From the IMG/VR virus record IMGVR_UViG_3300043467_001216: a stretch of 64,000 nt of DNA; one strand, given 5' to 3'. This stretch comes from a virus (Duplodnaviria; Heunggongvirae; Uroviricota; Caudoviricetes). The position numbers were made by a program, and so were the translations under genes. This document shows, one piece after another, positions 37,028 through 52,311 of this stretch (its first letter is position 1; every line of letters begins with the position of its first letter). Under the pieces are notes generated by a model. That model did not search any database. It saw nothing but the letters and a program-made list of their open reading frames with translations, and had not been told where the DNA came from.

Positions 37028-38713
37028 ATGAGAAAAATAATTTTAAAAGAAACCACAGACGTAGGTGGTACTCCAGTAACAGCTTCAGGTGATTTGAAAT
37101 CATTTTTAAGTTTATGTCCTGAAGATGCACAAGGATTATCCTTTGTATCTATGAATGGACAAGAAGTCTTAAAAAAAGAATTTCCTGGTCAAGGTTATAT
37201 GATAATCAAACCTGATTTTACTTTTGTTAAATATAACTTACCTGATAACACCGAGAAAAAAGAAAACGGTAGAGGTAGATTAGCAAAATGTCAAGCATTT
37301 ACTGAGAAAGTAACCGCACCTATGGGTCCCGATATGGCAGCTGCGGTTAATGGTTTAATTGCTAAAGACAAAACTTTAATGAGAATTGAAGATAAGGGTG
37401 TTAGAGAAGGTATTGTAACCGGTACATTTGTACCTGTTGATTTGAATACTTTGAATGCCGAAAGTAAAAAAATATTTACTGTACCAAACAAATACTTTTT
37501 ATATAGACAAAAAGGTATTGGAGGTGTTGTAGCAAATGTTAGTCCTCAAATCGCAAATTGGTTATCGGATAATAATTTTACATTAGACGAACCAACAGGT
37601 GAAAAAAAGGATGATATTGAAAGATGGAAAACTCAACAACCTTTAGTTGTTGCATTACAAAATGTACCGGGTAGTGCCGCATTTATTCCAAAAATTGAAG
37701 GTGAGTTAGGTAAAAAGAGAAGTGAGATTAATGTATATAACATCAAACTTCAAAATTTAGGAGGTATAAAACCTTTGGATAAGTTTAATAAACTTGCGGG
37801 TGAATTAGATTCTCAAAAAATTGAAAGACAAACGTGTAGAAGTGTTGTTAAGTCTTTGTCCGAAATGTCACAGTTATTTAGAAAAAATCCTGTTTTAGTA
37901 CAAAACATTAATTCAACATTATTAAATAAAATGACAGATTATGCAATGAATTGTGATTTGAAAAAGTTTTTAACAGGGGCTTTAGGTGTTGGAGATGAGA
38001 TTGCTAGATTGAAACGTGATTCTTCACCGTTTGGTTTATTAAATAAAGTTAATACGGCTCAAAATCAAGGAAATATGAACGAATCAGTTGATGATTATTT
38101 AAAATCCGTGTTACGAAAAAAATTATTTGTCTTATCTGAGAGTAAAAAAAAAAGCGTAATAACAACTAAAGAATTTAAAAATTATATAAGAACAATTGAT
38201 GAGGCGTTTGAATCATTAAATTCAGGTAAAAAAAGAATTAATGAAGATGGTCTTAAAGATATGTTATCAGGAGCGTTAGGTTATGGGGGTGAAGGTATTA
38301 TAAGTTATTTTAAAGAAAAATTAGTTAAAAGTATTATTGACAAATTTGTCCCTGGTGGTTCAAAAACTTGGTTAGGTGGTGTTGTATCAACAACAATAGG
38401 TAACATTAAAATAGGGGATTTTTTAAATGGTAACGTTTTAAAATGTGAATTTTTAGTTCCTGAATTAGCAAAAGGTATTGGTGAAAATGCTATCAACCAA
38501 TTTGCAGATAAAAAAGGATTAACAGGTGGGTTTTACGACGTATTGAGAAATTCAGTGATTGAAGTTGTTGATGACGTTCCATTTGTTGATAGTATTCAAA
38601 ATGGGTTATCAACTGTTTTATGTCCGACATTAGGTAAACTTAAAGGTGCTTTAGGAGGACTTTTTGGTAGTTTAGGTTCTGAACTTAAACAAGAAATAAT
38701 ACCAAGTAAATAA
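37028..38713 (+). CDS. Putative internal virion protein (start MRKIILKE)
   Basis: Long ORF with internal MNE/LSE/INE motifs. Confidence 0.75.
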   Translation: MRKIILKETTDVGGTPVTASGDLKSFLSLCPEDAQGLSFVSMNGQEVLKKEFPGQGYMIIKPDFTFVKYNLPDNTEKKENGRGRLAKCQAFTEKVTAPMGPDMAAAVNGLIAKDKTLMRIEDKGVREGIVTGTFVPVDLNTLNAESKKIFTVPNKYFLYRQKGIGGVVANVSPQIANWLSDNNFTLDEPTGEKKDDIERWKTQQPLVVALQNVPGSAAFIPKIEGELGKKRSEINVYNIKLQNLGGIKPLDKFNKLAGELDSQKIERQTCRSVVKSLSEMSQLFRKNPVLVQNINSTLLNKMTDYAMNCDLKKFLTGALGVGDEIARLKRDSSPFGLLNKVNTAQNQGNMNESVDDYLKSVLRKKLFVLSESKKKSVITTKEFKNYIRTIDEAFESLNSGKKRINEDGLKDMLSGALGYGGEGIISYFKEKLVKSIIDKFVPGGSKTWLGGVVSTTIGNIKIGDFLNGNVLKCEFLVPELAKGIGENAINQFADKKGLTGGFYDVLRNSVIEVVDDVPFVDSIQNGLSTVLCPTLGKLKGALGGLFGSLGSELKQEIIPSK

Positions 38714-38773
38714 AAATCTTTTAGATTTGTCTAAAAGGCTTAACACTTCAAAAGAAAGGAGAGCAAATCTAAC

Positions 38774-38802
38774 AAAAGGGTGTCGTGAGACACCTTTTTG
38801 TT
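38774..38802. terminator. Bidirectional terminator
   Basis: AAAAGGGTGTC-GTGA-GACACCTTTT. Confidence 0.85.
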
Positions 38803-39294
38803 TTAATAGAAAGTTTTTTGAAATTCAACCCAAATTTCTTCAATATTAGGATTAATTACATTAGAAAATATTGATGGTTCAAATGGTTTAATTAATAATT
38901 TCATACCCGCTTCATCAGGTGTTTTATTATCCTTAACTCGATTACAACTTTTACAACAAGTAACTAAATTACTCCAAGTATTTCCCCCACCTCTTGATTT
39001 AGGTAATACGTGGTCAATGGTTAAGTTTTTAGAACTACCACAATACGCACATTTATGATTATCACGTCTAAAGACCCTGTGTCTATTTATTTTTAAAGTC
39101 CGTACTCTAAATCTAACATAAGATAATAATCTAATTATCAAAGGTCTAACAAGAGTAGTTGACCCGGCAATAATAGGTGATTCACCTGATTTCAATATTT
39201 CGGCTTTACCTTTAGTAACTAAATTAAAACCTCGTATTGTTGTAGTTACATTAATCGGTGTGTAATCAGCATTTAATACTAATACTTTGTCCAT
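38803..39294 (-). CDS. HNH endonuclease (McrA-like)
   Basis: [16 protein letters not shown]...[22 protein letters not shown]. Confidence 0.92.
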
Positions 39295-39402
39295 TCTAAA
39301 TAATTTTACAACTAATATAGACAAAAAAAAATAAAACTCAAATTTTGTTTTTATGTGGATTTATATTTATGTTTGTCCTATAACTTTTTAAAACAAAAAA
39401 AT

Positions 39403-39579
39403 ATGTACGTAATAATTAAGAATGTAAAGAACAAAAAAGGAATCTCAATTCCTGTTATTATTTTGAATTCAGACCACGAAGTTTGGGAATTTGATACTTA
39501 CGAAGCAGCCGAAAAAATGAAAGATATTTTCGAAACTAACTCAGATTCAGGTCATACATATTTAGTTAAAAAAATCTAA
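39403..39579 (+). CDS. Hypothetical protein
   Basis: ATG after TATGTTTG promoter. Confidence 0.7.
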   Translation: MYVIIKNVKNKKGISIPVIILNSDHEVWEFDTYEAAEKMKDIFETNSDSGHTYLVKKI

Positions 39580-39580
39580 G

Positions 39581-39778
39581 ATGGGAAGTTTTCACGAAAT
39601 GTTAGAAGAAGAACACAGAAAATTCTGTAATTCATTAGATGGTCAATCATATATGAATATGATGAGTGAAATTAATGATTCGGAAGAATATGTTTCAGTT
39701 CCTAAAAAATTTATTGAGGACCTAAAAGATTTTGATTATTGGAAAGAATGGAAAAATAGTGATAACAATTTGGTGTGA
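39581..39778 (+). CDS. Hypothetical protein
   Basis: 65 aa ORF. Confidence 0.65.
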   Translation: MGSFHEMLEEEHRKFCNSLDGQSYMNMMSEINDSEEYVSVPKKFIEDLKDFDYWKEWKNSDNNLV

Positions 39779-39822
39779 TTGAATTATAATTAGTATCTTC
39801 GTTAAAATTAAAAAAAAGAGAT

Positions 39823-40371
39823 ATGAAAAAATTATTAATGTTTGGTTTGATTGGTTTATCGTTATTTAGTTGTGAAAATAATTCATCTAATTTAGATGTG
39901 TTTGATATGAAATGTATGAGTGATGGGGACACAATTGTAATACAAGGTTTGGGTGATTTCAATCAATTAGAGGTGTTAAGAATTAAAGACATTCTTGAAA
40001 GAAGATGTCACATCCCAACTAAAATTGGTGAACCACTCGAATTAACACCTGACAAATGTTATGAAGGTAAACTTAATATTGAAAAGTCTTTAATGGATTT
40101 TGACGATAACACAAATAAAATTTTGGTAACCAACACCAAGTGTTATTCAACGGTAGAAAAAAGACCTGTTGGTGGTGTTGGTGAATTGGGTGGTAATCTT
40201 ATTATAATTGGTAAAAACCCAGCTAACACAACTGAACGAGTATTAATACACGAAATGGGTCACTGTTATGGTCTTGACCACTGTGAAAACCCAACGTGTG
40301 TTATGTCACAAACTCGTGAAAATGATAACTTAAAATTAAATTTTTGTGACGATTGTCAAAAAAAGTTTTAA
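39823..40371 (+). CDS. Archaemetzincin-like Zn metalloprotease lipoprotein
   Basis: LFSC lipobox; HEMGHCYGLDHC..CVM...FC..C. Confidence 0.85.
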   Translation: MKKLLMFGLIGLSLFSCENNSSNLDVFDMKCMSDGDTIVIQGLGDFNQLEVLRIKDILERRCHIPTKIGEPLELTPDKCYEGKLNIEKSLMDFDDNTNKILVTNTKCYSTVEKRPVGGVGELGGNLIIIGKNPANTTERVLIHEMGHCYGLDHCENPTCVMSQTRENDNLKLNFCDDCQKKF

Positions 40372-40433
40372 AAAAACTTGACTACTAAAGAACTTTTACT
40401 AAATTTGTTGATATATATTAAAAGAATTAAAAA

Positions 40434-40553
40434 ATGAGAACAACTGAACAACATATTAAACAAGTAAGTCAATCGAAACAGATTCGCGTGTGTAGCGTAT
40501 CGTATCCGATGTGGTTTATCACGTCATATGGTTCAGAAAACATATTAAGTTAG
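40434..40553 (+). CDS. Leader peptide 1 (39 aa, MRTTEQHIKQVSQSKQIRVCSVSYPMWFITSYGSENILS)
   Basis: Codons 6-29 are all cognate to tRNAs of the downstream block; antiterminator near the stop. Confidence 0.8.
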   Translation: MRTTEQHIKQVSQSKQIRVCSVSYPMWFITSYGSENILS

Positions 40554-40612
40554 TTATAAACGTATAACAATTTGATAAGACCCCTGAACCAAAAGTTCGG
40601 GGGTTTTTTTTT
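40529..40612 (+). promoter_or_regulatory. Attenuator 1 (antiterminator/terminator)
   Basis: TGGTTCAG 40529-40536 complementary to CTGAACCA 40584-40591 in terminator AGACCCCTGAAC-CAAAA-GTTCGGGGG-T9. Confidence 0.8.
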
Positions 40613-40621
40613 GAAATAAAA

Positions 40622-40688
40622 TTTGGAAGTTACGAAATGAAATTCGTACCTTTGACAACAGAAAAGTTCATTGACATATTGGTTTAGA
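40622..40688 (+). promoter_or_regulatory. Bacteroidota-type promoter + boxA-like leader
   Basis: TTTG 40622, TACCTTTG 40647-40654, GTTCATTGACATATTGGTTTAGA 40666-40688. Confidence 0.75.
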
Positions 40689-40695
40689 TAAATAA

Positions 40696-40782
40696 GGAGA
40701 GTATCTGGCAGGATGAAGAGCTACTCTTGAAAAGTAGTAAGACGTGTAATGGGTCTTGTGGGTTCGAGTCCCACACTCTCCT
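40696..40782 (+). tRNA. tRNA-Ser(UGA)
   Basis: GGAGAGT/ACTCTCC acceptor, CTACT-CTTGAAA-AGTAG, long variable arm, T-arm. Confidence 0.85.
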
Positions 40783-40797
40783 CAAAAAAATAGAGTT

Positions 40798-40923
40798 ATG
40801 GTAAAAAGAGAAGTATTGACGGGAACATTTGAGTCAAGTAAAAGATTTTTAAGACAAGAGCCTAAAGAGGTTAAACTAAAATTCAGATTAATTAGAAAAT
40901 TAATCAAAAGGTTACATAAGTAA
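40798..40923 (+). CDS. Small basic protein (41 aa, MVKREVLTGTF...)
   Basis: Translated manually, between tRNAs. Confidence 0.5.
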   Translation: MVKREVLTGTFESSKRFLRQEPKEVKLKFRLIRKLIKRLHK

Positions 40924-40930
40924 CCATTAT

Positions 40931-41005
40931 TGTCCTGTAGGCGACGTTGGCAGAGCCACCACACTTTGAATGTGGATATCGCAGGTTCGATTCCTGCCGG
41001 GACAA
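40931..41005 (+). tRNA. tRNA-Gln(UUG)
   Basis: CCACA-CTTTGAA-TGTGG, full cloverleaf. Confidence 0.9.
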
Positions 41006-41088
41006 CAATAAAACAATTAGTTATTTCACGTTAAAAGATGGTCTTATAGGCTCACGAAGGCCGTGTCAACATCAATAACTAATAAATT

Positions 41089-41161
41089 GGGTCAGTTGCC
41101 AAGTTGGTCAAGGCACTTGTCTGAAGAACAAGCAATGGGGGTTCGATTCCCTCCTGTCCCA
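41089..41161 (+). tRNA. tRNA-Phe(GAA)
   Basis: CTTGT-CTGAAGA-ACAAG. Confidence 0.9.
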
Positions 41162-41241
41162 CGAGGTCCTGAATTAACAGGATACCCCCACCTCCGATAT
41201 GGCAGTCAGTCCGTTAAGCTGATGAAGTGGGGTTTTTATAT

Positions 41242-41316
41242 GGTGGCTATAGTGTTAGTGGTCGAGCACGTAAGTTTGTGGTTCTTATAGGTTGGGTTCG
41301 AATCCCAATAGTCACC
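41242..41316 (+). tRNA. tRNA-His(GUG)
   Basis: G-1:C73, TAAGT-TTGTGGT-TCTTA. Confidence 0.9.
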
Positions 41317-41572
41317 CAATTAATTTTTAAAACTTAGAAATCACAGAGACAGAAAAAACATTTATCAGTTCCGACTTAGAAAATGGTCGATGGTTATCTC
41401 CAATCGTAAGTGAAAGGAAATGGCAAGAAGAAAAATTAGTTGAGATATTCGGTCATTATCCGAACGCAAGTCCTAAATGGCTATATCTCAATGGTTTGAT
41501 ACACATTGCATTAGATTACATTAAACAAAATGAAGAAAAAATTTGACAAGTTGTAGGTTAAAAACCACAACT

Positions 41573-41770
41573 ATGAGTACAAACATCAACAGAGCAAAAC
41601 TGAACAAAGCACAAAATGGTAGAGAATACCGAAATAGATTGATAAATGACTTTTATCCAATTTATTGGGATGACGGAATTACTTTCTACGGAAACAAAAT
41701 GAGTTATCAAGTTAGAATGTATAAGACTTGGAAACACTACAGAAAAACTCAATATAAGGTAATAACCTAA
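41573..41770 (+). CDS. Small basic hypothetical protein
   Basis: MSTNINRAKL...YKTWKHYRKTQYK. Confidence 0.7.
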   Translation: MSTNINRAKLNKAQNGREYRNRLINDFYPIYWDDGITFYGNKMSYQVRMYKTWKHYRKTQYKVIT

Positions 41771-41860
41771 TAATGGGTGAATATTAGGTTAAAACCTAAT
41801 AATTGATGAATATAAGGCTGGAACCTTATAATGGTCGATTATAAGTCTCCAACCTTATTA
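41764..41860. repeat. 29-bp-period tandem palindromic repeat (3 units + partial)
   Basis: AACCTAATA-N9-TATTAGGTT-type units at 41764, 41793, 41822, 41851. Confidence 0.75.
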
Positions 41861-41863
41861 TTT

Positions 41864-41935
41864 GGTTCCTTGGTGTAATGGATAGCACCTATCGCTACGG
41901 ACGATAATGTCAAGGTTCGAGTCCTTGGGGGACTA
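41864..41935 (+). tRNA. tRNA-Arg(ACG)
   Basis: TATCG-CTACGGA-CGATA. Confidence 0.9.
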
Positions 41936-41975
41936 CGTATCCGATGTGTGATACCGAGCTAGGTCGGTGTAATTT

Positions 41976-42063
41976 GGAAGATTACCCAAGTTGGTGAAGG
42001 GGTCACATTGCTAACGTGATAGGTCTGAAATATGACGCGTGGGTTCGAGCCCCACATCTTCCG
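41976..42063 (+). tRNA. tRNA-Ser(GCU)
   Basis: TCACA-TTGCTAA-CGTGA, long variable arm. Confidence 0.9.
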
Positions 42064-42070
42064 CAGAAAC

Positions 42071-42140
42071 ACCGAGGCTTAGAGGAAAAGAACTATCTCT
42101 CATAAGGATGGTCAAGTGGGTTCGAAACCCATACTCGGTA
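42071..42140 (+). tRNA. Atypical tRNA(CAU) with shortened D region
   Basis: ACCGAG/CTCGGT, TATCT-CTCATAA-GGATG, GTGGG-TTCGAAA-CCCAT. Confidence 0.6.
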
Positions 42141-42184
42141 CAAAAAAATATTACAAAGGTATTGTGAGAATGGAAATGATTACT

Positions 42185-42230
42185 TATCTTTGTTAGACAA
42201 AAGAAAAGGTCTTTGACATATTGGTTTAGA
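42185..42230 (+). promoter_or_regulatory. Promoter + boxA-like leader
   Basis: TATCTTTG 42185-42192; GGTCTTTGACATATTGGTTTAGA 42208-42230. Confidence 0.75.
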
Positions 42231-42239
42231 AAGAAATAA

Positions 42240-42314
42240 CGGGGTGTAGTCTTGGGGTGAGACGCTTGGTTTGGGACCAAGAGGCGGCAGGTTCGACACC
42301 TGCCACCCCGACCA
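42240..42314 (+). tRNA. tRNA-Pro(UGG)
   Basis: CTTGG-TTTGGGA-CCAAG, encoded CCA. Confidence 0.92.
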
Positions 42315-42322
42315 AAAATTAA

Positions 42323-42396
42323 CGGAATGTAGCTCAGCTGGTAAGAGCATTCGCCTGATACGTGAAAGGTCGTAGGTTCGAACCCTACCATTCCGA
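42323..42396 (+). tRNA. tRNA-Ile(GAU)
   Basis: TTCGC-CTGATAC-GTGAA. Confidence 0.9.
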
Positions 42397-42522
42397 CTAC
42401 TTAATACCGAATCGGGTTTGTCAGTAAAGTGGGACCCTGCGACTATGACACTTAGGTGTAATTAGAGAAAATGACATTAAATAACCCACCACGGAAGGTG
42501 TTATCGGTGACCTTCTATTTTT

Positions 42523-42597
42523 GACTTCGTAGCTCAGTTGGTTTAGAGCAGTACACTTTTAATGTACGGGTCGTGAGTTCGATTCTCACCGGGGTCA
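42523..42597 (+). tRNA. tRNA-Lys(UUU)
   Basis: GTACA-CTTTTAA-TGTAC. Confidence 0.93.
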
Positions 42598-42605
42598 CAA
42601 TAATT

Positions 42606-42677
42606 AGCCCTTTAGCTTAAAGGTGAAGTACTTGTTTTACATACAAGATAGTGTAGGTTCGAGTCCTACAGGGGCTA
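42606..42677 (+). tRNA. tRNA-Val(UAC)
   Basis: CTTGT-TTTACAT-ACAAG. Confidence 0.9.
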
Positions 42678-42787
42678 CAAAATGTTAAGTTGGGTTTCCT
42701 AGTGGTAACGGTATGAACTATAGTAAGTAAGCCACAAGATTCTAGTAATAAGCGACAGATGGATTACTCGCGACTTAATATTTAATT

Positions 42788-42861
42788 GGACAGATGCCTG
42801 AGTGGTTTAAAGGGGTGGACTGCAAATCCACTATCCGGGGGTTCGAATCCCTCTCTGTCCT
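42788..42861 (+). tRNA. tRNA-Cys(GCA)
   Basis: GTGGA-CTGCAAA-TCCAC, U73. Confidence 0.93.
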
Positions 42862-42887
42862 CAATGAAATATATTGTTTCATTATTT

Positions 42888-42959
42888 GCATCATTGGTGT
42901 AATGGCTAGCATAAATGGTTCCAACCCATTTGGTCAGGGTTCGAGTCCTTGGTGGTGCG
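42888..42959 (+). tRNA. tRNA-Trp(CCA)
   Basis: AATGG-TTCCAAC-CCATT, G73. Confidence 0.88.
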
Positions 42960-43030
42960 CAAATATCGTAGGAGAGTTGATTAAGTTCAAACCCGCCGTT
43001 AAATTGTGAAGGACAATCTACGATATATTC

Positions 43031-43113
<83 letters not shown>

Positions 43114-43191
43114 CAATAAAAAAAAATTTAAACCAATTGTTGACACTTTTCAAAACTTTGATATATTTAATTAGTAAAGAATAACAAAATT

Positions 43192-43266
43192 ATGCAAAAC
43201 TTGAATAACATACTAATAGCGAGAACGGAGGGAGACAATCCTTGTGTATCGGAGAAGGTGTGTTAA
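43192..43266 (+). CDS. Leader peptide 2 (24 aa, MQNLNNILIARTEGDNPCVSEKVC)
   Basis: Codons 3-16 are all cognate to tRNAs of the downstream block; antiterminator just before the stop. Confidence 0.8.
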   Translation: MQNLNNILIARTEGDNPCVSEKVC

Positions 43267-43322
43267 TTCATTAAACATAAAATTTAAATGAAACCCTTCT
43301 CCAAAAGAGAGGGGTTTTTTTT
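43251..43322 (+). promoter_or_regulatory. Attenuator 2 (antiterminator/terminator)
   Basis: GGAGAAGG 43251-43258 complementary to CCTTCTCC 43295-43302 in terminator AAACCCTTCTC-CAAAA-GAGAGGGG-T8. Confidence 0.8.
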
Positions 43323-43332
43323 GTTACCTACG

Positions 43333-43404
43333 TTTGGTAAATCAAAATAAAAGCATTAGATTTGTCAGACAAAAGAAAAAAGTTCTTTGACATATTGGTT
43401 TAGA
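43333..43404 (+). promoter_or_regulatory. Promoter + boxA-like leader
   Basis: TTTG 43333, TAGATTTG 43357-43364, GTTCTTTGACATATTGGTTTAGA 43382-43404. Confidence 0.75.
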
Positions 43405-43411
43405 AGTTAAT

Positions 43412-43484
43412 ATCCTCGTGACGGAAAGGTATACGTCCTTGTCTTAGAAACAAGGTTTTGTGGGTTCGAATCCCACCGAGGATA
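43412..43484 (+). tRNA. tRNA-Leu(UAG), short variable region
   Basis: CTTGT-CTTAGAA-ACAAG; variable region only GTTTT. Confidence 0.85.
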
Positions 43485-43490
43485 CATAAT

Positions 43491-43564
43491 GGTTCAGTAG
43501 CTCAACAGGTGAGAGCAGGACGCTTATATCGTCAAGGTTGGGGGTTCAAATCCCTCCTGAACTA
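43491..43564 (+). tRNA. tRNA-Ile(UAU)
   Basis: GACG-CTTATAT-CGTC, A73. Confidence 0.8.
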
Positions 43565-43595
43565 CTGAAAAAATAAAAAATAAAAAATAAAAATT

Positions 43596-44111
43596 ATGTC
43601 AATATATAGTGTTGGTAGAAAAACTTACGGTTCTGAAAATATTAAAATTTACGAATGGGGTGAAGGTAAAACAATTAAAATAGGGTCTTTTTGTTCAATA
43701 GCAACAAATATTCAAATTTTTATTGGGGGTAATCATAGACCTGATTGGATTACAACATTCCCATTTCCACATTCGTTTAGTGTGGGTCATCCGTCATCTA
43801 ATGGTGATGTTATAATTGGTAATGATGTTTGGATTGGTGCTAATGCAACAATAATGTCAGGTGTTATTATTGGTGATGGTGCCGTTATTGCAAATAATTC
43901 TCACGTAGTAAAAAATGTTGAACCTTACACTATTGTTGGAGGTAATCCAGCTAAACCTATCCGTAAAAGATTTGATGATGAAACAATTCAAAAACTTTTA
44001 AAATTAAAATGGTGGGATTTTAATGATGATGAGATAAATAGAATAACCCCAATTTTATGTTCTAGTAATATAAACGAATTGTTTGAATTATATAAGGATA
44101 AATTACTTTAA
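43596..44111 (+). CDS. CatB/Vat-like hexapeptide-repeat acetyltransferase
   Basis: IGSFCSIA..GGNH, IGNDVWIG, IGDGAVIA, GGNPAK.IRKRF, WWD. Confidence 0.92.
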   Translation: MSIYSVGRKTYGSENIKIYEWGEGKTIKIGSFCSIATNIQIFIGGNHRPDWITTFPFPHSFSVGHPSSNGDVIIGNDVWIGANATIMSGVIIGDGAVIANNSHVVKNVEPYTIVGGNPAKPIRKRFDDETIQKLLKLKWWDFNDDEINRITPILCSSNINELFELYKDKLL

Positions 44112-44142
44112 AAAAAGTCTTGTATAATCAAAAGTAAATACT

Positions 44143-44193
44143 TAGATTTGTAAGACAAAAGAAAACAAAAGGTCTTTGACATATCGGAATAGA
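44143..44193 (+). promoter_or_regulatory. Promoter + boxA-like leader
   Basis: TAGATTTG 44143-44150; GGTCTTTGACATATCGGAATAGA 44171-44193. Confidence 0.75.
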
Positions 44194-44204
44194 AAAAATA
44201 AAAT

Positions 44205-44278
44205 GTCGCGTTAGACGAGTGGTTTAAGTCGTCACCCTTTCAAGGTGAAAATCACGGGTTCGAATCCCGTACGCGATA
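44205..44278 (+). tRNA. tRNA-Glu(UUC)
   Basis: TCACC-CTTTCAA-GGTGA. Confidence 0.92.
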
Positions 44279-44283
44279 CATAT

Positions 44284-44355
44284 CGCGGGATGGGGGAGTG
44301 GTCACCCCGCTGGGCTCATAACCCTGAGACACAGGTTCGAATCCTGTTCCCGCTA
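44284..44355 (+). tRNA. Initiator tRNA-fMet(CAU)
   Basis: C1 mismatch, GGG-CTCATAA-CCC. Confidence 0.88.
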
Positions 44356-44361
44356 CTAAAT

Positions 44362-44546
44362 AAAACAAGTGAGGACGGTGAGTAAACCCTCACTGTCTAT
44401 AAATCCCAAGACGGTACTTGATTCGCGGTAGTAAAGTTATTGAGGGTAGAATTACTATAAGTCTGGGATTAGCTACCCAAATGACGAAAATGTAATCACC
44501 GAGTAAAATTGGTTATGATGTGTAATGGTCACGAAAAACTTGTTTT
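44362..44546 (+). ncRNA. Unknown pseudoknotted structured RNA (~185 nt)
   Basis: Closing stem AAAACAAGT/ACTTGTTTT, several inner helices, GGGTAG/CTACCC pseudoknot. Confidence 0.6.
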
Positions 44547-44554
44547 TTTAAAAT

Positions 44555-44626
44555 GGTCTATTAGTGTAGTGGCTAACATACATCCCTGTCACGGATGTGC
44601 CGCGAGTTCGATTCTCGCATAGACCG
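44555..44626 (+). tRNA. tRNA-Asp(GUC)
   Basis: CATCC-CTGTCAC-GGATG, G73. Confidence 0.92.
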
Positions 44627-44847
44627 CGGGAGTGTACACAGTAGAGTTCTGTTTGAGAGAGGATTGTAACACGCACTTTAAAATGAGGTTACAAGGTATC
44701 AAACCGTTTATTCAGTTTTGACCGATAAAAACTGACGATTTTTTGAGAAATTTTAAGTCGATATAAAATTTCTTCGTGATATTAGTAGGTTTGGCCGCCT
44801 CATCACGTTAATGTGATGAAACATACCCAATGGAGTAATCACAACTT

Positions 44848-44920
44848 GCGGTAGTCGTATAATGGTTTATTATATAACCTTGCCAAGGTTAGGACGGAGG
44901 TTCGATTCCTCTCTACCGCT
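44848..44920 (+). tRNA. tRNA-Gly(GCC)
   Basis: TAACC-TTGCCAA-GGTTA, U73. Confidence 0.9.
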
Positions 44921-44970
44921 CAAAATAAAGGAGTTATAACCCTTTATATGGATGGTTCGAAACATCCGAT

Positions 44971-45042
44971 TGAGTATGGTGTACGGTGCACGGATGATGG
45001 TAATACGGATTCAAGATTAAGGTTCAATTCCTTATTATTCAG
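44971..45042 (+). pseudogene. Degenerate tRNA-like element (possibly Thr GGU)
   Basis: Acceptor, D and T arms present; anticodon stem does not pair. Confidence 0.45.
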
Positions 45043-45066
45043 CAAAGAGAAATAACACTCTTAATT

Positions 45067-45139
45067 GGTCTCTTAGTATAATGGCTTATTATTCTGGCTT
45101 TGTAACCCAGAGATAACGGTTCGAATCCGTTAGGGACCT
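45067..45139 (+). tRNA. tRNA-Thr(UGU)
   Basis: CTGGC-TTTGTAA-CCCAG. Confidence 0.88.
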
Positions 45140-45145
45140 CACAAT

Positions 45146-45217
45146 GGACTATTAGCTCAGCGGTAGAGCAATCGGCTGTTAACCGATAGGTCGTAGGTTC
45201 GAATCCTTCATGGTCCG
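45146..45217 (+). tRNA. tRNA-Asn(GUU)
   Basis: ATCGG-CTGTTAA-CCGAT, G73. Confidence 0.92.
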
Positions 45218-45276
45218 CAAAAAAGAGGAAAAACTTGTGTAGGTGCCTCAAGGGACTGCTGCCCTACTACACTCAA

Positions 45277-45356
45277 GGACCTGTGGTGAAATTGGTATAC
45301 ACGCTTTCTTTAAGCGGAAGTTCTTAGGATTGTGGGTTCGACTCCCACCAGGTTCA
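45277..45356 (+). tRNA. tRNA-Leu(UAA)
   Basis: CTTTC-TTTAAGC-GGAAG, extended variable arm. Confidence 0.88.
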
Positions 45357-45442
45357 CAATAGTGTCTCAGAACGCTCTGATAAGGTAACTTATTAACGAT
45401 GAGGTCTCGGTAGACAGAACGCGTCTGATTCTACCCAAATTA

Positions 45443-45515
45443 GCGGGTGTCGTATAGTGGATTATTATATTAGACTTCCAATTTAAAGACGAGGGTTCGA
45501 TTCCCTCCACCCGCT
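45443..45515 (+). tRNA. tRNA-Gly(UCC)
   Basis: TTAGA-CTTCCAA-TTTAA, U73. Confidence 0.9.
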
Positions 45516-45521
45516 CAAAAT

Positions 45522-45621
45522 AGACAACAAACTCTTCACCGAGGAAAACCTTTAAAACAGATTCACAACTATAAAGGTCGTTGAGTTGGGTAATAATAAA
45601 TGTGAGTATTACCTGTTGTCT
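45522..45621 (+). ncRNA. Unknown kissing-loop structured RNA (~100 nt)
   Basis: AGACAACA/TGTTGTCT closing stem; loops ATTCACA and TGTGAGT are complementary. Confidence 0.55.
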
Positions 45622-45630
45622 TTTTATTAT

Positions 45631-45706
45631 GGGGGTATCGTATAATGGCTTATTACGGTAGATTTGCAATTTACAAATCTGGTTTCGATTACCAGTACCT
45701 CCACCA
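45631..45706 (+). tRNA. tRNA-Ala(UGC)
   Basis: G3:U70, GTAGA-TTTGCAA-TTTAC, encoded CCA. Confidence 0.92.
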
Positions 45707-45712
45707 TATTTT

Positions 45713-45785
45713 GGTCCTATGATGTAACTGAATAGCATAAGCCCCTTCTAAGGGTTTCGTTGGGGTTTGAATCCCTGTAGGACTA
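45713..45785 (+). tRNA. tRNA-Arg(UCU)
   Basis: AGCCC-CTTCTAA-GGGTT. Confidence 0.88.
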
Positions 45786-46145
45786 CTCGTTGTGATGACG
45801 GATACGATGACAATTTGAACAAAGTAAATCACATTTATCAAGTTCTTTAATTATTTTATCCCAAGAACGTTTTCGTAAGTGAGTCCATTCAACATCTTTT
45901 TGTGATGGGTCACGATGATGAAAATCAAAAATAACATATGGTGATTTAGGGTATGAATTAGAACAATCTAAACATTTACCACCTTTATACTCAATAGCTT
46001 TTATTTTTGTTTTAATCCAACGTTCAGAACAATATTTATTGAAGCAGACTTTACATTTTGATTGTTTTGAAGGTCTATCGTTTTGTTGATAGAATTCAGT
46101 TACTGATTTTTCTTCATTACACGAAGTACAAATTTTAGTTTCCAT
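45783..46145 (-). CDS. Free-standing HNH homing-endonuclease-like protein (start METKIC)
   Basis: CxxC pairs, FDFHHRDP, CDLLCSNCHRIRH; TATTTAT upstream. Confidence 0.88.
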   Translation of the reverse strand: METKICTSCNEEKSVTEFYQQNDRPSKQSKCKVCFNKYCSERWIKTKIKAIEYKGGKCLDCSNSYPKSPYVIFDFHHRDPSQKDVEWTHLRKRSWDKIIKELDKCDLLCSNCHRIRHHNE

Positions 46146-46191
46146 AACAATAAATATGTGGATAGTATCAAAAAGACTAATTCCATAATCA

Positions 46192-46213
46192 GGGTTTGAA
46201 TCCCTGTGGGGCA
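46192..46213 (+). repeat. Duplicated tRNA 3' end (T-arm remnant)
   Basis: GGGTTTGAATCCCTGT identical to 45763-45778 of tRNA-Arg(UCU). Confidence 0.75.
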
Positions 46214-46217
46214 ACAA

Positions 46218-46419
46218 TGAGTTCGAGAAACTCAATGGGTTTTTAAGAGTCCCTCAAAACTTAACGGAACTGATACCATCCACGTTACGGGGTATTCATT
46301 GGGAATCGGAAGGAAGACTCTCCTATCCCCCAAGTAAGAGTTGATTTTTAAGCGGTAAGACGCGTTGGGTTTTGCATAAGAAAACTGTGAATATCTACTC
46401 TCCGTAATCTCAGGAGGGG
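46218..46419 (+). ncRNA. Unknown structured RNA (~200 nt) ending in a UAAUCUCA-loop hairpin
   Basis: Multiple hairpins; TAATCTCAG shared with the 3' end of the large ncRNA at 57914. Confidence 0.5.
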
Positions 46420-46421
46420 TT

Positions 46422-46528
46422 TATTTATTGACCGAGTGGTTTAAGGTTGAGCATACATAAAGTCTGGGAATGTGGTATGTATGATACCTATACACGGGGA
46501 CTCACAGGTTCGAATCCTGTATTGATAA
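46422..46528 (+). ncRNA. tRNA-like RNA with enlarged anticodon arm
   Basis: Canonical D and T arms; CATACATA/TATGTATG stem with 16-nt loop containing CTGGGAA. Confidence 0.6.
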
Positions 46529-46592
46529 CGTAATTCTAAACCAATATGTTTTTTTTTTCATTTAAGAATATTTATTAATAAACAATTTTAAG

Positions 46593-47861
46593 ATGAAAAA
46601 AACAATTCGTTTAAAAGAAACAGATTTAATAAATGTTGTTAATTCAATAATCAAAGAAAATAACTATCTTTTTGAAGATTCTGTTGAACAAATATTTGAC
46701 AATATTGATAGAAAATACGATTACAAAATATCAAATAACACTTGGTACGCTAAACTAAAAAATGGAACTGAATGGGTGGATTTATCAGGATATCCTAAAG
46801 CCATAACTATATTAAATAATAAAACAGGTATTAATGTTGTACCTGATGTTGAACCTACTCCAAAACCTATTCCTGACCCAAGACCTATTCCTGACCCAAA
46901 ACCAAAACCTATTCCTGAGCCAAAACCAAAACCAAAACCAAAACCTATTCCTGAGCCAAAACCAAAACCTGAAGATGACACTAAATTAACCCCACAACAA
47001 AAATTAATGAGAGCGAAATCTTGTGGGTTCAATTCTTGGATTGAATATAAATCAAGTGGGTTTAAATGTGGTGAAAAACCTGTTCCAAATCCAATTGATA
47101 AATCAGACACTATTGTTAGTAAAACAACTAATCCTAATTTTTTATCAAAAATAGTTAAAGTTGGTCCTAAAATTAGTACGGGTAAATCAACACCTGTCTT
47201 TGGTGCGGGTCAACGTGAATGTGCTCAGTTTGTTAACGATTTTGATACTAAACTTGAATCCGTTGGGGATGCTTGGTTAGCTCATAGTAAAGACCAAATA
47301 GGTCCACGTATTTTTACGTCATTTAGAGGTTTATCACCTGATGATGTTAAAAGAATCACTGATTTATGGGTTAAAATAGATAAATCAGGTGGTGCTAAAG
47401 GTAATTATATTAATGATGCTAGAAATTTAGTAAGAAGTTTGATTAAATCAGCACCGCCTAAATTACAACTTAATGATGTTGTTGGTATATACTACCCAAC
47501 TTCAGAAAATCACGAAAAAGCTTTTTATCTTGGGGGTAAAAACGCCATATCAGGTAATAAACCATATATTCTAAAAAATAATGGTAAATACGTTCCAGGT
47601 AATACTCTTAAATCAGGTAATGCTTGGGGTATGAATACTCACGTAGGTATAGTAGGTGCGATTAAAGATGGTGTTCCAATTATATTCCATAACGTTCACG
47701 GACAAGTTTATGCCGACCCTTATAATAGGTTATTAGATGGTGGTAAAATTGCTTGGGTTAGACGTGCGGGTAACTCATCACCAATAGCTTTAAATAAAGT
47801 TAAAGGTCCTGGGTCAATTACTGAAGAAATCACAAACAGTGGATTAAAAAAAAAACTTTAG
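46593..47861 (+). CDS. Putative virion amidase/peptidase (NlpC/CHAP-like) with Pro-Lys linker
   Basis: IRLKETDL leader; ECAQFVN...GDAW, THVGIV...IFHN. Confidence 0.7.
   Translation: MKKTIRLKETDLINVVNSIIKENNYLFEDSVEQIFDNIDRKYDYKISNNTWYAKLKNGTEWVDLSGYPKAITILNNKTGINVVPDVEPTPKPIPDPRPIPDPKPKPIPEPKPKPKPKPIPEPKPKPEDDTKLTPQQKLMRAKSCGFNSWIEYKSSGFKCGEKPVPNPIDKSDTIVSKTTNPNFLSKIVKVGPKISTGKSTPVFGAGQRECAQFVNDFDTKLESVGDAWLAHSKDQIGPRIFTSFRGLSPDDVKRITDLWVKIDKSGGAKGNYINDARNLVRSLIKSAPPKLQLNDVVGIYYPTSENHEKAFYLGGKNAISGNKPYILKNNGKYVPGNTLKSGNAWGMNTHVGIVGAIKDGVPIIFHNVHGQVYADPYNRLLDGGKIAWVRRAGNSSPIALNKVKGPGSITEEITNSGLKKKL
46853..46970 (+). repeat. Pro-rich coding tandem repeat (PKPIPE/D)
   Basis: CCAAAA and CCTATTCCTGA units. 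Confidence 0.85.
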
Positions 47862-47881
47862 TTGAACAGAACGACAATTTA

Positions 47882-48640
47882 ATGCCGGGACAAAGTGATA
47901 ACTATTATAACATATATAAAAACGCTCAAGAAGAAAACATAAAATATAAACAATATTCTTGTGTTCCTAACGGATTTAAACCATCAATATCTCAATTAAT
48001 TAAAAAAGGTTATAACCCTTTATTATTAAAGGCGGCATTGGGTATGATTGGTCGTGAAACATCATACGGTAATAGTCTTCGTTATAAAATATTATCACCT
48101 TTAAAAAATATAGGTGCTTACTTAGGGTTTGATACTTCTGCAGGATTAGCACAAATGAAAAATAGTACTAAGGAAAGTCTTAACATTAAAGAAGATATTA
48201 ATACGGTTACAGGTGCGTTAATTGCGATATATAAGTTTTTGGACCGAAGTTACAAAAAGGCAATTCAAGAAGGTTATTCAACATCACAACCTTCAACAAC
48301 CCCAAAAACAAGTACAGGTAACGCAGCTTTAGATATTTCAATTGCGTCATATAATATTGGATTTGGTAGGATTGTTAAATATTGTAAAACTGATGACCCT
48401 AATATTAAAAGACCTTGTTCTAAGGCAGGAAAAATCGTAGAACAATCAGTAGTCGGAGCACCAAATATGGGGGTTACCGGACAAAAAAGTAACCCCAATG
48501 ATAATGTTAAAAAAACTAAGTTTAAAGTTTCAAATCAATTAGTTAAAAACTATTTACCAAATATTCCGATTAATAAATTAACAACTTACGGATATGTTGA
48601 TGAGGTTGCTAACAGAATAAAAGGGTTTAATTGTTTTTAA
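47882..48640 (+). CDS. Lytic-transglycosylase/lysozyme-like protein
   Basis: IGRETSYG, SAGLAQM, IASYNIG, GYVDEV. Confidence 0.65.
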   Translation: MPGQSDNYYNIYKNAQEENIKYKQYSCVPNGFKPSISQLIKKGYNPLLLKAALGMIGRETSYGNSLRYKILSPLKNIGAYLGFDTSAGLAQMKNSTKESLNIKEDINTVTGALIAIYKFLDRSYKKAIQEGYSTSQPSTTPKTSTGNAALDISIASYNIGFGRIVKYCKTDDPNIKRPCSKAGKIVEQSVVGAPNMGVTGQKSNPNDNVKKTKFKVSNQLVKNYLPNIPINKLTTYGYVDEVANRIKGFNCF

Positions 48641-49334
48641 AGTTACCGTAGATATAAGTTGTTGGTTGATTAATATCCATTGCTGATTTAACAATGTCAG
48701 GAACTGATTGAAAAACTATTTCATCAGAATCATCTGAGAATTTATAATCAACTGACGACCCACCATCTAATAATATACCTTCAACCATACCTTGATTTTC
48801 GGCAAACTCAACAATTTCTCTAATAGTAACTAAACCAACTCTATTAGATGATATAATCATAATGTCCCCGTCACGATTTTCACCCATAATTGTTCTATAT
48901 GCGGTTTCATTAGCGTGTCTTGTATTAAGTAAACCTTCATTTTTAATACCGTTATCAATCGCCCAAAGAATACTTTGTGATGCGTAATCGGTCATTAAAG
49001 GACAAAACCCTGACGCTACGTGAGGTATGCCATTAACAACATAAAAATAACCACCACCACGTTGTCTTTTACTATGTCTTAAACGATTAATAACTACAAG
49101 ACCAATTGAGGTATTACTTTTAGTGAAAAAATTACTGTTAACATAAAAATCAGCATCACTTGGTTTTTCAGTTGAAACTCCAAAAGACATCTCATCTTTT
49201 TTAAGAATTAAAACGTTATAATTCTCATTTGATTGAATTTGAGACATATGAATTGATTTGGGTAATCCACATCCGACAATACTCATAATTAATAATCCTA
49301 CAATTACTAAAGAAAATTTATTTACATTTTTCAT
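48627..49334 (-). CDS. Phosphodiester glycosidase (NAGPA-like) lipoprotein
   Basis: IVGC lipobox, NSNFF, RTIMG, LLDGGSS. Confidence 0.75.
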   Translation of the reverse strand: MKNVNKFSLVIVGLLIMSIVGCGLPKSIHMSQIQSNENYNVLILKKDEMSFGVSTEKPSDADFYVNSNFFTKSNTSIGLVVINRLRHSKRQRGGGYFYVVNGIPHVASGFCPLMTDYASQSILWAIDNGIKNEGLLNTRHANETAYRTIMGENRDGDIMIISSNRVGLVTIREIVEFAENQGMVEGILLDGGSSVDYKFSDDSDEIVFQSVPDIVKSAMDINQPTTYIYGNFKNN

Positions 49335-49403: not shown

Positions 49404-49748
49404 ATGAAAACAATTATAGCTGGAGGTAGAGATTTTGAAGATTATAATCTACTACGAGAAAAGTGTGATAAGTTGATTAATTCAAACCTAACAGAAATTG
49501 TTAGTGGTCGTGCTAAAGGTGCTGACACATTAGGTGAGAGATATGCCAAAGAACGAGGATTTGACGTTAAGTTGTTTCCTGCGGATTGGAAAACTCACGG
49601 AAGAAAAGCGGGGCATATTAGAAATAAACAAATGGCCGATTATGGTGAAATGTTGATAGCATTTTGGGATGGTAAAAGTAGTGGTACTAAAAATATGATT
49701 GAGAATGCCAATAAATTAGGATTAATAGTTCATATTGTTAATTACTAG
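49404..49748 (+). CDS. SLOG/YspA-like nucleotide-binding protein
   Basis: IIAGGRDF, SGRAKGAD, AGHIRN, FWDGKSSGT. Confidence 0.85.
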   Translation: MKTIIAGGRDFEDYNLLREKCDKLINSNLTEIVSGRAKGADTLGERYAKERGFDVKLFPADWKTHGRKAGHIRNKQMADYGEMLIAFWDGKSSGTKNMIENANKLGLIVHIVNY

Positions 49749-50128: not shown

Positions 50129-50587
50129 ATGGAAAAAGTAAGAATATATTTAGATGATGTGAGAACACCGGTTGATAAAGATTGGTTAGTTGTTAGAAAT
50201 TTTCACGAGTTTATTAATTTGGTAAATAAAGTTGGTTTAACTAATATATCATTAATCTCATTGGACCACGATTTAGGTGATACTGCGATGAAAGAATACT
50301 TCAATAACGTATCTAAAAATTATAAATTAGATTATGAAAATATTGAGGAAAAAACCGGATATGATGCTGCTAAATGGTTAGTAACAGAATTTTACGAGAT
50401 AAACGAAAACCGTATTAATATGTCAAGATTTGATAAGAAACAAAAACCTATCAAATTTCCTGATGTTGTAGTTCACTCGGCAAATCCGATTGGGTCAGCA
50501 AACATTATGGGTTATATCAATAACTTCCTAATGAATGAGGGACAAGAACAAACTTGCGTTAGAGTTAAAATAGAACACACTGTTTAA
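50129..50587 (+). CDS. Cyclic-phosphate-processing receiver-like phosphatase
   Basis: YLDDVRTP, SLDHDLG, KTGYD, VHSANPIG. Confidence 0.75.
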   Translation: MEKVRIYLDDVRTPVDKDWLVVRNFHEFINLVNKVGLTNISLISLDHDLGDTAMKEYFNNVSKNYKLDYENIEEKTGYDAAKWLVTEFYEINENRINMSRFDKKQKPIKFPDVVVHSANPIGSANIMGYINNFLMNEGQEQTCVRVKIEHTV

Positions 50588-50609: not shown

Positions 50610-51092
50610 ATGAACGTTTTTATATTAGATTTCGATGTTAAGAAATGTGCTGAATATCATTGTGATAAGCACGTAGTTAAAATGATACTTGAGACTGCAC
50701 AACTTTTATGTGGTGTTCATCACGTAATTGAGACTCAAACTGAGATACCTTATAGGTTATCTCATAAGAACCACCCAAGTGCGATATGGTCGAGAGAGTC
50801 GTTATCTAATTATCTATATTTGTGTGAGTTAGGTTTAGAGTTATGTTATGAATACACATACAGATATGGTAAACGTCATAAATCACAAGATGTTATTGAG
50901 TGGTGTTTAGATAAAAAACCAAATATCGTTGACAAAGGATTTACTGAACCCCCAAAGGCAATGCCTGACGAATATAAAGTTGACAGTGTTGTCGATTCGT
51001 ATAGAAATTATTATAAAGGAGCCAAATCAGGATTTGCGGTATGGAAAAACAGAGAAGTTCCTGAATGGTATAAAGAATTAGAATTAGTATGA
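50610..51092 (+). CDS. Pyrimidine-dimer DNA glycosylase-like protein
   Basis: MNVFILD...HCDKHVVKMILETAQLL, HKNHPS, YRNYY. Confidence 0.8.
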   Translation: MNVFILDFDVKKCAEYHCDKHVVKMILETAQLLCGVHHVIETQTEIPYRLSHKNHPSAIWSRESLSNYLYLCELGLELCYEYTYRYGKRHKSQDVIEWCLDKKPNIVDKGFTEPPKAMPDEYKVDSVVDSYRNYYKGAKSGFAVWKNREVPEWYKELELV

Positions 51093-51757
51093 TAAAAATT
51101 GAAAAAGATAGAAAAGGAAATTTACCTGATGTTTGGATAACATCAGATACTCACTACAATCACTCAAACATTTGTCGTGGGACTACTAATTGGAGAAAAC
51201 CTGATGGTTCAGTTCCAATCAAAGAAACTCGTGACTTCAAATCGTTGGATATAATGAACGATATGATTGTGGATAATATAAACCAATATGTTAAACAAGA
51301 TGATGTGTTAATTCACTTGGGTGATTGGTCATTTGGTGGTTTTGAATTCATTAGAAAATTCAGAGAAAGAATTATATGTAAAAACATACACTTAATTTTG
51401 GGTAACCACGACCACCACATTGAGAATAACAAAGAAAACATTCAATCGTTATTCTCAAGTGTTTCACAATATAACACATTGGTATTGGGTAAAATTAATA
51501 TTAGATTGTTTCACTACCCGATTGATTCTTGGAATGGATTGAATAAAGGTGAAATACATCTACACGGTCACTGTCACTTACCTAATGATATTAAATTAGG
51601 GAAAGGAAAACGAATGGATGTTGGTATGGACGGACATCCTGAATTTAGACCATACCACATTGTTGATGACATTCTACCAATAATGTCAAAACAACCAATT
51701 CATTCACATTTGGAACACGACCACCATACAGAAGAAATGTTAAACGTAGTAGGATAA
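51089..51757 (+). CDS. Calcineurin-like metallophosphoesterase
   Basis: SDTHYNH, HLGDW, GNHD, FHYP, HGHCH, DVGMD. Confidence 0.9.
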   Translation: MIKIEKDRKGNLPDVWITSDTHYNHSNICRGTTNWRKPDGSVPIKETRDFKSLDIMNDMIVDNINQYVKQDDVLIHLGDWSFGGFEFIRKFRERIICKNIHLILGNHDHHIENNKENIQSLFSSVSQYNTLVLGKINIRLFHYPIDSWNGLNKGEIHLHGHCHLPNDIKLGKGKRMDVGMDGHPEFRPYHIVDDILPIMSKQPIHSHLEHDHHTEEMLNVVG

Positions 51758-52114: not shown

Positions 52115-52311
52115 AAAAATTTAATTACAAAAAATATCAGTTATTAGATTGTTTAGATGAAATATCATCAACACAAAAAATGATTGATTTACATAGTGAT
52201 AATTCAGATAGAATTAGTAATTTTATGATGTCTCAATATAGAGATATGAGAAAACAAAGTATTATAGAATTTAATAAAATATCATATGGAAAGAAAATTA
52301 GCAACGATTAG
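52111..52311 (+). CDS. Hypothetical protein
   Basis: 66 aa ORF in operon. Confidence 0.6.
   Translation: MKKFNYKKYQLLDCLDEISSTQKMIDLHSDNSDRISNFMMSQYRDMRKQSIIEFNKISYGKKISND

Follow-up and report, generated by a model that had tools for sequence, protein, structure and literature searches.

Two short leader ORFs matched in codon content to the tRNA blocks behind them: candidate transcription attenuators in a large uncultured phage

Why phages carry arrays of tRNA genes has long been debated, with codon compensation and the replacement of destroyed host tRNAs as competing answers. The locus described here raises the question of whether such an array could be controlled by the supply of the very tRNAs that it encodes. 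It lies in a stretch of 64,000 nucleotides (nt), hereafter the window, of a Caudoviricetes genome (IMG/VR record IMGVR_UViG_3300043467_001216). The linear virus record from which the window comes is 126 kb long and ~42% complete, has a G+C content of 31% and includes a T4-like Gp23 capsid gene. The source is a large, uncultured, freshwater phage, and its host is probably a member of the Bacteroidota, given the TAnnTTTG promoters and rrn-type boxA elements in the sequence. ARAGORN identified 25 tRNAs at 40696–45786 in two blocks, both also supported by Rfam. Each block is preceded by a short open reading frame (ORF) and an intrinsic terminator, arranged as follows:

40434–40553 (+), leader ORF 1 (39 amino acids); sensor codons 6/7 to 28/29 (~40449–40520), representing all 14 block-1 decoding classes
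40529–40536 (+), antiterminator strand 1 (8 nt), complementary to the 5′ arm of terminator 1
40542–40577 (+), AT-rich hairpin over the leader-1 stop codon, from fold prediction; candidate pause or organising hairpin
40577–40613 (+), intrinsic terminator 1 (hairpin 40577–40607), with CAAAA loop and U tract
40696–43114 (+), tRNA block 1: Ser-UGA, Gln, Phe, His, Arg-ACG, Ser-GCU, Met-like CAU, Pro, Ile-GAU, Lys, Val, Cys, Trp, Tyr
43192–43266 (+), leader ORF 2 (24 amino acids); sensor codons 3/7 to 16 (~43198–43239), representing all 10 block-2 classes, with both Gly tRNAs treated as one class
43251–43258 (+), antiterminator strand 2 (8 nt), complementary to the 5′ arm of terminator 2
43290–43324 (+), intrinsic terminator 2 (hairpin 43290–43318), with CAAAA loop and U tract
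43412–45786 (+), tRNA block 2: Leu-UAG, Ile-UAU, Glu, fMet, Asp, Gly-GCC, Thr, Asn, Leu-UAA, Gly-UCC, Ala, Arg-UCU

Judged from sequence and comparison, each leader very probably acts as a ribosome-dependent transcription attenuator that would read the supply of the tRNAs encoded behind it, closing a negative feedback loop. An initial annotation, made from the letters of the window, had described the split into two blocks with these contents and sensing runs composed solely of codons read by the block behind them. ARAGORN, Rfam and homology bear out the former, and the latter was recovered exactly: leader 1 contains only block-1 classes from codon 6 to 29, and leader 2 only block-2 classes from codon 3 to 16. 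The division reaches the level of isoacceptors, with ATT/ATC and CGC in leader 1 as opposed to ATA and AGA in leader 2. Each block reads ~0.50 of the codons of the genome, as the annotation had assumed. The own-block runs of 24 and 14 codons compare with longest runs of 14 and 13 among the 32,715 ORF codons of the genome. Between codon 7 and a point 13 nt before the antiterminator, 22/22 codons of leader 1 belong to its own block and represent 14/14 classes; the corresponding values for leader 2 are 10/10 codons and 9/10 classes, the tenth class, Leu-UAA, being codon 4. Dividing the 24 classes 14/10 yields 1.96 million splits, of which only one fits both leaders, and P ranges from 5e-7 to 5e-6 depending on the test. 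When the interval is started at codon 2, free of any post-hoc 5′ limit, 37/42 codons are own-block (exact P 4.6e-6), and 43 of the 61 codons of the entire ORFs still match (P 1e-3). Units of leader, antiterminator and terminator occur nowhere else in the 126-kb record.

Relatives of the locus were collected with the boxA motif, the terminator motif and a neighbouring 58-amino-acid protein, yielding 151 tRNA-array loci and 77 sets of leaders from uncultured large-phage contigs of up to ~300 kb. A search for cultured phage relatives gave no match, and the marker protein identified no relative among GTDB genomes. tRNA calls were refined by homology, with CAU tRNAs divided into initiator, Ile2 and elongator-like types, and six two-block configurations were distinguished (referred to below by letters, as are clades). 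The sensor codons of each leader were scored against the tRNA content of its own configuration, antiterminator positions being fixed by conserved motifs. The 77 leaders comprise 20–39 codons, begin with ATG, maintain an open frame and stop ~24–43 nt before the terminator. Their codons co-vary with downstream tRNA content across all six configurations and down to isoacceptors, the outcome expected by the initial annotation. Own-block codons outnumber others by 965 to 2 in type-1 sensors (leader 1) and by 299 to 11 in type-2 sensors (leader 2), and the 21 leaders of clades A and A2 contain no other-block codon at all. Conversely, of the 569 tRNA classes found in the blocks, 556 have a codon in the leader of their own block, at 10–18 classes per leader and mostly one or two codons each. 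In both leader families the match is lost 4–5 codons before the antiterminator, a distance approximating the leading edge of a ribosome, and it is likewise missing from the first 5–6 codons.

The leaders also follow individual tRNAs that change block. Asn codons are confined to leader 2 in every clade with tRNA-Asn in block 2 (A, A2) and to leader 1 in every clade with a block-1 tRNA-Asn (A3, B, C, D), a rule without exception; Thr and Leu-UAG codons obey the same rule with 2 and 1–2 exceptions, respectively, among clade-B leaders, and Leu-UAA codons remain in leader 2. In the sister lineages L048 and L167/L217 (support 97/91), Asn placement differs and both leaders are swapped to match. On a tree of the non-mobile tRNAs, two moves are needed for Asn, one each for Thr and Leu-UAG, and three for Arg-UCU; monophyly of B+C is rejected by the approximately unbiased test (p-AU 0.0006). 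Within clade B, an AGA codon is found in 9/10 loci with Arg-UCU in block 1 as compared with 1/10 without it. The order of sensor codons varies between clades while their class composition is kept. A distant relative, L092, has a leader rich in Thr, Tyr, Arg and Glu at the head of a small Glu/Arg-UCU/Thr/Cys/Tyr block, and in L163 and L188 block 1 and leader 1 have been lost together.

The RNA elements are consistent with a switch. The architecture ascribed to both blocks from the first inspection, with a short ORF, an 8-nt antiterminator, an AT-rich hairpin and a CAAAA-loop terminator, is present in each, and the distance from leader stop to terminator is 27 nt in both units. Antiterminator and terminator folds are predicted to be mutually exclusive, and the AT-rich hairpin at the leader stop may serve as a pause site. 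Pairing is kept at 94.6% in the antiterminator helix of 30 type-2 units, with 12 double changes, and at 96.7% in their terminator, with 13; none of 500 shuffles reaches either value, and slid registers give 42–67%. One arm position is A, U or C in these units and is compensated in both pairing partners, a three-strand co-variation, and type-1 units of A, A2, A3, C, D and E display matched helix variants. Together with the codon/tRNA co-variation, these co-varying alternative helices support the multi-input attenuator that had been suggested for the locus. Folding of transcripts cut at the terminator loop, with an assumed ribosome footprint of 12 nt, yielded the two competing structures and predicted antitermination for a stall nearly anywhere upstream, as well as for naked RNA in most units; as its 3′ boundary is set by the assumed footprint, this calculation checks the competing structures and is no proof of the boundary. 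Rfam matches over leader 1 (rnk leader, Rev39, BTnc005) were rejected, as they fall far below gathering scores and reflect the terminator.

We picture the switch as follows. RNA polymerase would start at the promoter motifs upstream of a leader, and a ribosome would translate the nascent ORF. With rapid decoding of every sensor codon, the ribosome would reach and cover the antiterminator, so that the terminator could fold and transcription would end before the tRNAs. At any slow sensor codon the ribosome would wait at least 12–14 nt upstream, leaving the antiterminator free to pair with the 5′ arm of the terminator and allowing polymerase to enter the block, where the rrn-type boxA would presumably recruit Nus antitermination to the read-through transcript. 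The newly made tRNAs would then relieve the stall, giving an OR gate of many inputs with negative feedback. Because an untranslated leader is predicted to antiterminate, a total collapse of translation would switch the block on as well. The first 5–6 codons may be skipped since very early stalls could end in peptidyl-tRNA drop-off; early drop-off at hungry codons is described in PMC10192219, although that study reports it as far as codon 16.

Where transcription begins matters for how much control such a switch could exert. The following elements were identified:

40377–40407 (+), putative leader-1 promoter of Bacteroidota type by consensus: -33 TTG, 19-nt spacer, -7 TAAATTTG
40623–40682 (+), internal host-type promoter (-7 box 40647–40654) and rrn-type boxA (40665–40682), from sequence and relatives
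42185–42224 (+), second internal promoter and boxA (42208–42224) within block 1, from sequence
43140–43169 (+), putative leader-2 promoter motif of phage type, TTGAC...TATATTTA
43333–43398 (+), internal host-type promoter (-7 box 43357–43364) and rrn-type boxA (43381–43398), from sequence and relatives
44143–44186 (+), further promoter and boxA (44171–44186) within block 2, from sequence

The Bacteroidota -7 box TAnnTTTG precedes 46/55 type-1 leaders, and a phage-type TATTTA motif 27/31 type-2 leaders. TATTTA[TA] is found upstream of 48 of the 127 genome ORFs, where ~5 are expected, and the motif at leader 2 may have a middle or late role; no sigma70 region 2 was detected in the 42%-complete record. 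A late-type promoter had been suspected at both leaders from the shared TTGATATAT. This sequence indeed occurs before both but is not the conserved element, and the suspicion is borne out only in part, leader 1 having a host-type promoter as well. Inside the array there are four TAnnTTTG plus boxA units, one per tRNA sub-block, and the boxA-like motif is kept even where the internal promoter is missing. The boxA 18-mer is exact at 43381–43398 and carries 1–2 mismatches at the other sub-blocks. Its matches lie mostly in Bacteroidota genomes (Chitinophagia, Sphingobacteriia and others); for 46/121 the start of a 23S gene can be recognised downstream, and many lie behind the spacer tRNA-Ile/Ala, the place of the rrn boxA. 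This suggests that the phage borrows host Nus antitermination via boxA.

Several observations weigh against the attenuator interpretation. The 5′ boundary of the sensors was picked after inspection of the data. Independent block moves are few (~6–7 on the tree), and since monophyly of A+A2 is not rejected (p-AU 0.078), two separate Asn moves are unproven. The association of AGA with Arg-UCU within clade B comes down to four independent pairs, with none opposite (sign test p 0.125). In L205 a complete block 1 stands without a leader, and leaders often keep codons of tRNAs lost not long ago, as in L027, L020 and L202, thus lagging behind tRNA loss. On the structural side, the leader-1 antiterminator duplex of clade B is longer and weaker, with a core of ~-5 kcal/mol, and the search for a conserved anti-antiterminator (1:2 protector) helix returned a 6-bp candidate in clade-A leader 1 only. 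Finally, all clade-A loci (12/12 and 7/7) have a host-type promoter in the interval from the terminator to the first tRNA, as do most type-2 units.

Granting the attenuators, the signal for which they were selected could be amino-acid starvation, under-charging or general elongation stress instead of tRNA destruction. We regard this as possible but rather unlikely. A stalled ribosome is blind to the difference between an uncharged and a missing tRNA, the units are built like amino-acid attenuators, and the sensors are enriched in rare G-ending codons (8/18 versus 1.9 expected, P 2e-4), which may raise their sensitivity. However, the split between leaders tracks isoacceptors (ATA versus ATY, AGR versus CGN, CTN versus TTR) and the moves of tRNA genes, a shortage of amino acids is not cured by extra tRNA, and two RNA ligases 6–9 kb downstream provide a tRNA-repair context. 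As the sensors resolve isoacceptors and the product is itself tRNA, we favour tRNA loss over starvation; if the mechanism holds, host tRNA loss in infection, by defence nucleases or general RNA decay, would be the likelier natural trigger.

A less probable alternative, which we consider unlikely, is that the attenuators are minor in this phage, the internal host-type promoters making most of the tRNA and the leaders being minor or vestigial. The four internal promoter and boxA units, and the promoter that every clade-A locus has past the terminator and ahead of its first tRNA, fit this view. Yet clade-A sensors are perfectly matched, and frames, antiterminators and stop-to-terminator spacing are kept, which argues for continuing selection; moreover, leader 2 has an apparent phage-type promoter that could take over once host promoters fall silent. 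The initial annotation had cautioned that host promoters lie past each terminator. This applies to the present clade but not behind leader 1 elsewhere: in 42/42 loci of configurations A2, A3, B, C, D and E no host promoter was found there, and the first tRNA or boxA directly follows the leader-1 U tract, with 9–22 nt to tRNA-Thr in clade B. Of the two controls, the attenuator would thus be the one that is conserved and the internal promoter the one that varies, and in this clade read-through past the attenuators probably supplements the output of the internal promoters. It is very improbable that the ORFs serve to make a functional small peptide or an arrest peptide, or that they arose by chance in front of ordinary terminators, with an incidental codon match. 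Peptides are conserved within clades, and the terminators might do no more than shield the tRNA promoters from the genes upstream. But the exact P lies between 5e-7 and 1e-3 by codon interval, and between clades it is composition, not residue order, that is conserved, which speaks against a functional peptide. The choice among synonymous isoacceptor codons follows the position of the tRNA, the antiterminator within the coding region co-varies with the terminator, and there are but two such units in 126 kb.

Ribosome-mediated attenuation is classically represented by the E. coli trp, his and pheA leaders, the multivalent thr and ilvGMEDA leaders, and pheM-pheST. Like these, the phage units combine a short leader ORF with control codons placed ahead of an antiterminator, which in turn competes with an intrinsic terminator, and the output would relieve the stall; pheL provides a described case of leader attenuation (PMC3082878). 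Of the features that define an attenuator, the leaders show a short conserved ORF ahead of the regulated genes, control codons read by the tRNAs behind them, mutually exclusive antiterminator and terminator folds, and a codon placement such that a stalled ribosome would leave the antiterminator free; tandem control codons, repeated for a single amino acid or a few, were not found in them. They differ from the classical systems in regulating tRNA genes and not biosynthetic enzymes or synthetases, in having up to 18 inputs of one or two codons each in place of tandem runs for 1–3 amino acids, and in being isoacceptor-resolved, located in a phage, devoid of a conserved 1:2 protector and on by default when untranslated, as predicted from folding. 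T-boxes bind one uncharged tRNA directly, without translation. They are similar in being a terminator/antiterminator switch responsive to tRNA status, but Rfam gave no T-box match, with its stem I specifier loop and antiterminator bulge, at E<=1 in 38000–49000. In Anabaena, the trn operon, an array of 26 tRNA genes, is normally silent and induced by translational stress through the TrcR repressor (PMC10272220). That chromosomal or plasmid host system acts at initiation via a DNA-binding ribbon-helix-helix repressor and is not codon-specific. tRNA regions of T5-like phages rescue from retron-Eco7, PrrC and PARIS (PMC11555353, PMC11464382; hypothesis in PMC10264068) and share with the present locus the idea of phage tRNAs replacing host tRNAs destroyed by defence, but a strong promoter is described as their driver, with no sensing step, and attenuation and a leader are unmentioned in PMC11555353. 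In contrast to boxA in Bacteroidota rrn spacers, boxA here follows the attenuator or the internal promoter of a phage tRNA block, where it would act in Nus antitermination. The initial annotation knew of no such control for phage tRNA arrays, and our literature search, made mostly without subscription papers, likewise returned no description of attenuator-controlled tRNA genes. The locus would represent a known attenuation mechanism, in variant form, applied to a new target, tRNA genes.

The array and its surroundings contain further elements. The block-1 Met-like CAU tRNA (42071–42140) has a weak Rfam match (23 bits) and is recovered by homology in relatives. In block 2, the Ile-UAU tRNA (43491–43565), a lysidine-independent AUA reader, occupies the place of an Ile2-type CAU tRNA in close relatives (L005, L144, L212), and ATA is present in all type-2 leaders. 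A degenerate tRNA-like element lies between Gly-GCC and Thr (44970–45046); its anticodon loop differs among relatives, and the low-score ARAGORN call of Arg-ACG at ~44970 was not counted. In this phage two genes are inserted in block 2, one for a hexapeptide-repeat acetyltransferase (43596–44111) whose DNA resembles vat-family genes, the other for an HNH endonuclease (45783–46235, minus strand). A tRNA-like RNA at 46422–46530 has D- and T-arm motifs and a long anticodon arm and is 93–98% conserved in seven clade-A relatives; the proposal that it is a Pro-GGG tRNA reading codon 17 of leader 2 was rejected, the loop being GGA in L003 and L014. Structured intergenic segments within the array (41165–41240, 41938–41975, 42682–42785, 44630–44845 and 46190–46420) are conserved across several configurations and have no Rfam match. 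Clade-B arrays L027, L020, L188 and L228 include low-score ARAGORN calls with stop-codon anticodons (TTA, CTA), possibly suppressor-like or mis-called tRNAs, and another phage carries a different leader-terminator unit at a distance before a Leu-UAA/Leu-UAG pair (L047:4405–4570, reverse-strand numbering). The RNA ligases lie at 52286–53320 (PF09414 with OB fold) and 54271–55326 (PF09511, T4 Rnl1 type), near a metallophosphoesterase (51089–51757), a cREC_REC receiver (50129–50587) and a YAcAr SLOG protein (49404–49748), and this may constitute an RNA-repair neighbourhood beside the tRNA array.

In its widest form, the proposal is that a family of large Bacteroidota phages keeps the whole tRNA pool under codon-resolved surveillance, with tRNAs sorted into blocks, every isoacceptor of a block sampled by its own leader, defence-nuclease attack on any host tRNA switching on the replacement block, and leaders rewritten when tRNAs move; the balance of evidence tips slightly in its favour. 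A switch that responds to slow decoding of its own codons would mean that the phage handles a lack of tRNA as something unpredictable that has to be sensed, and it turns the debate on phage tRNA arrays into a question testable with simple reporters. Attenuation would be extended to stable-RNA genes, with 10–18 inputs per leader, and the arrangement suggests an inducible counter-defence against tRNA-cleaving immunity. The leaders would also represent ready-made multi-codon biosensors of tRNA depletion for Bacteroidota.

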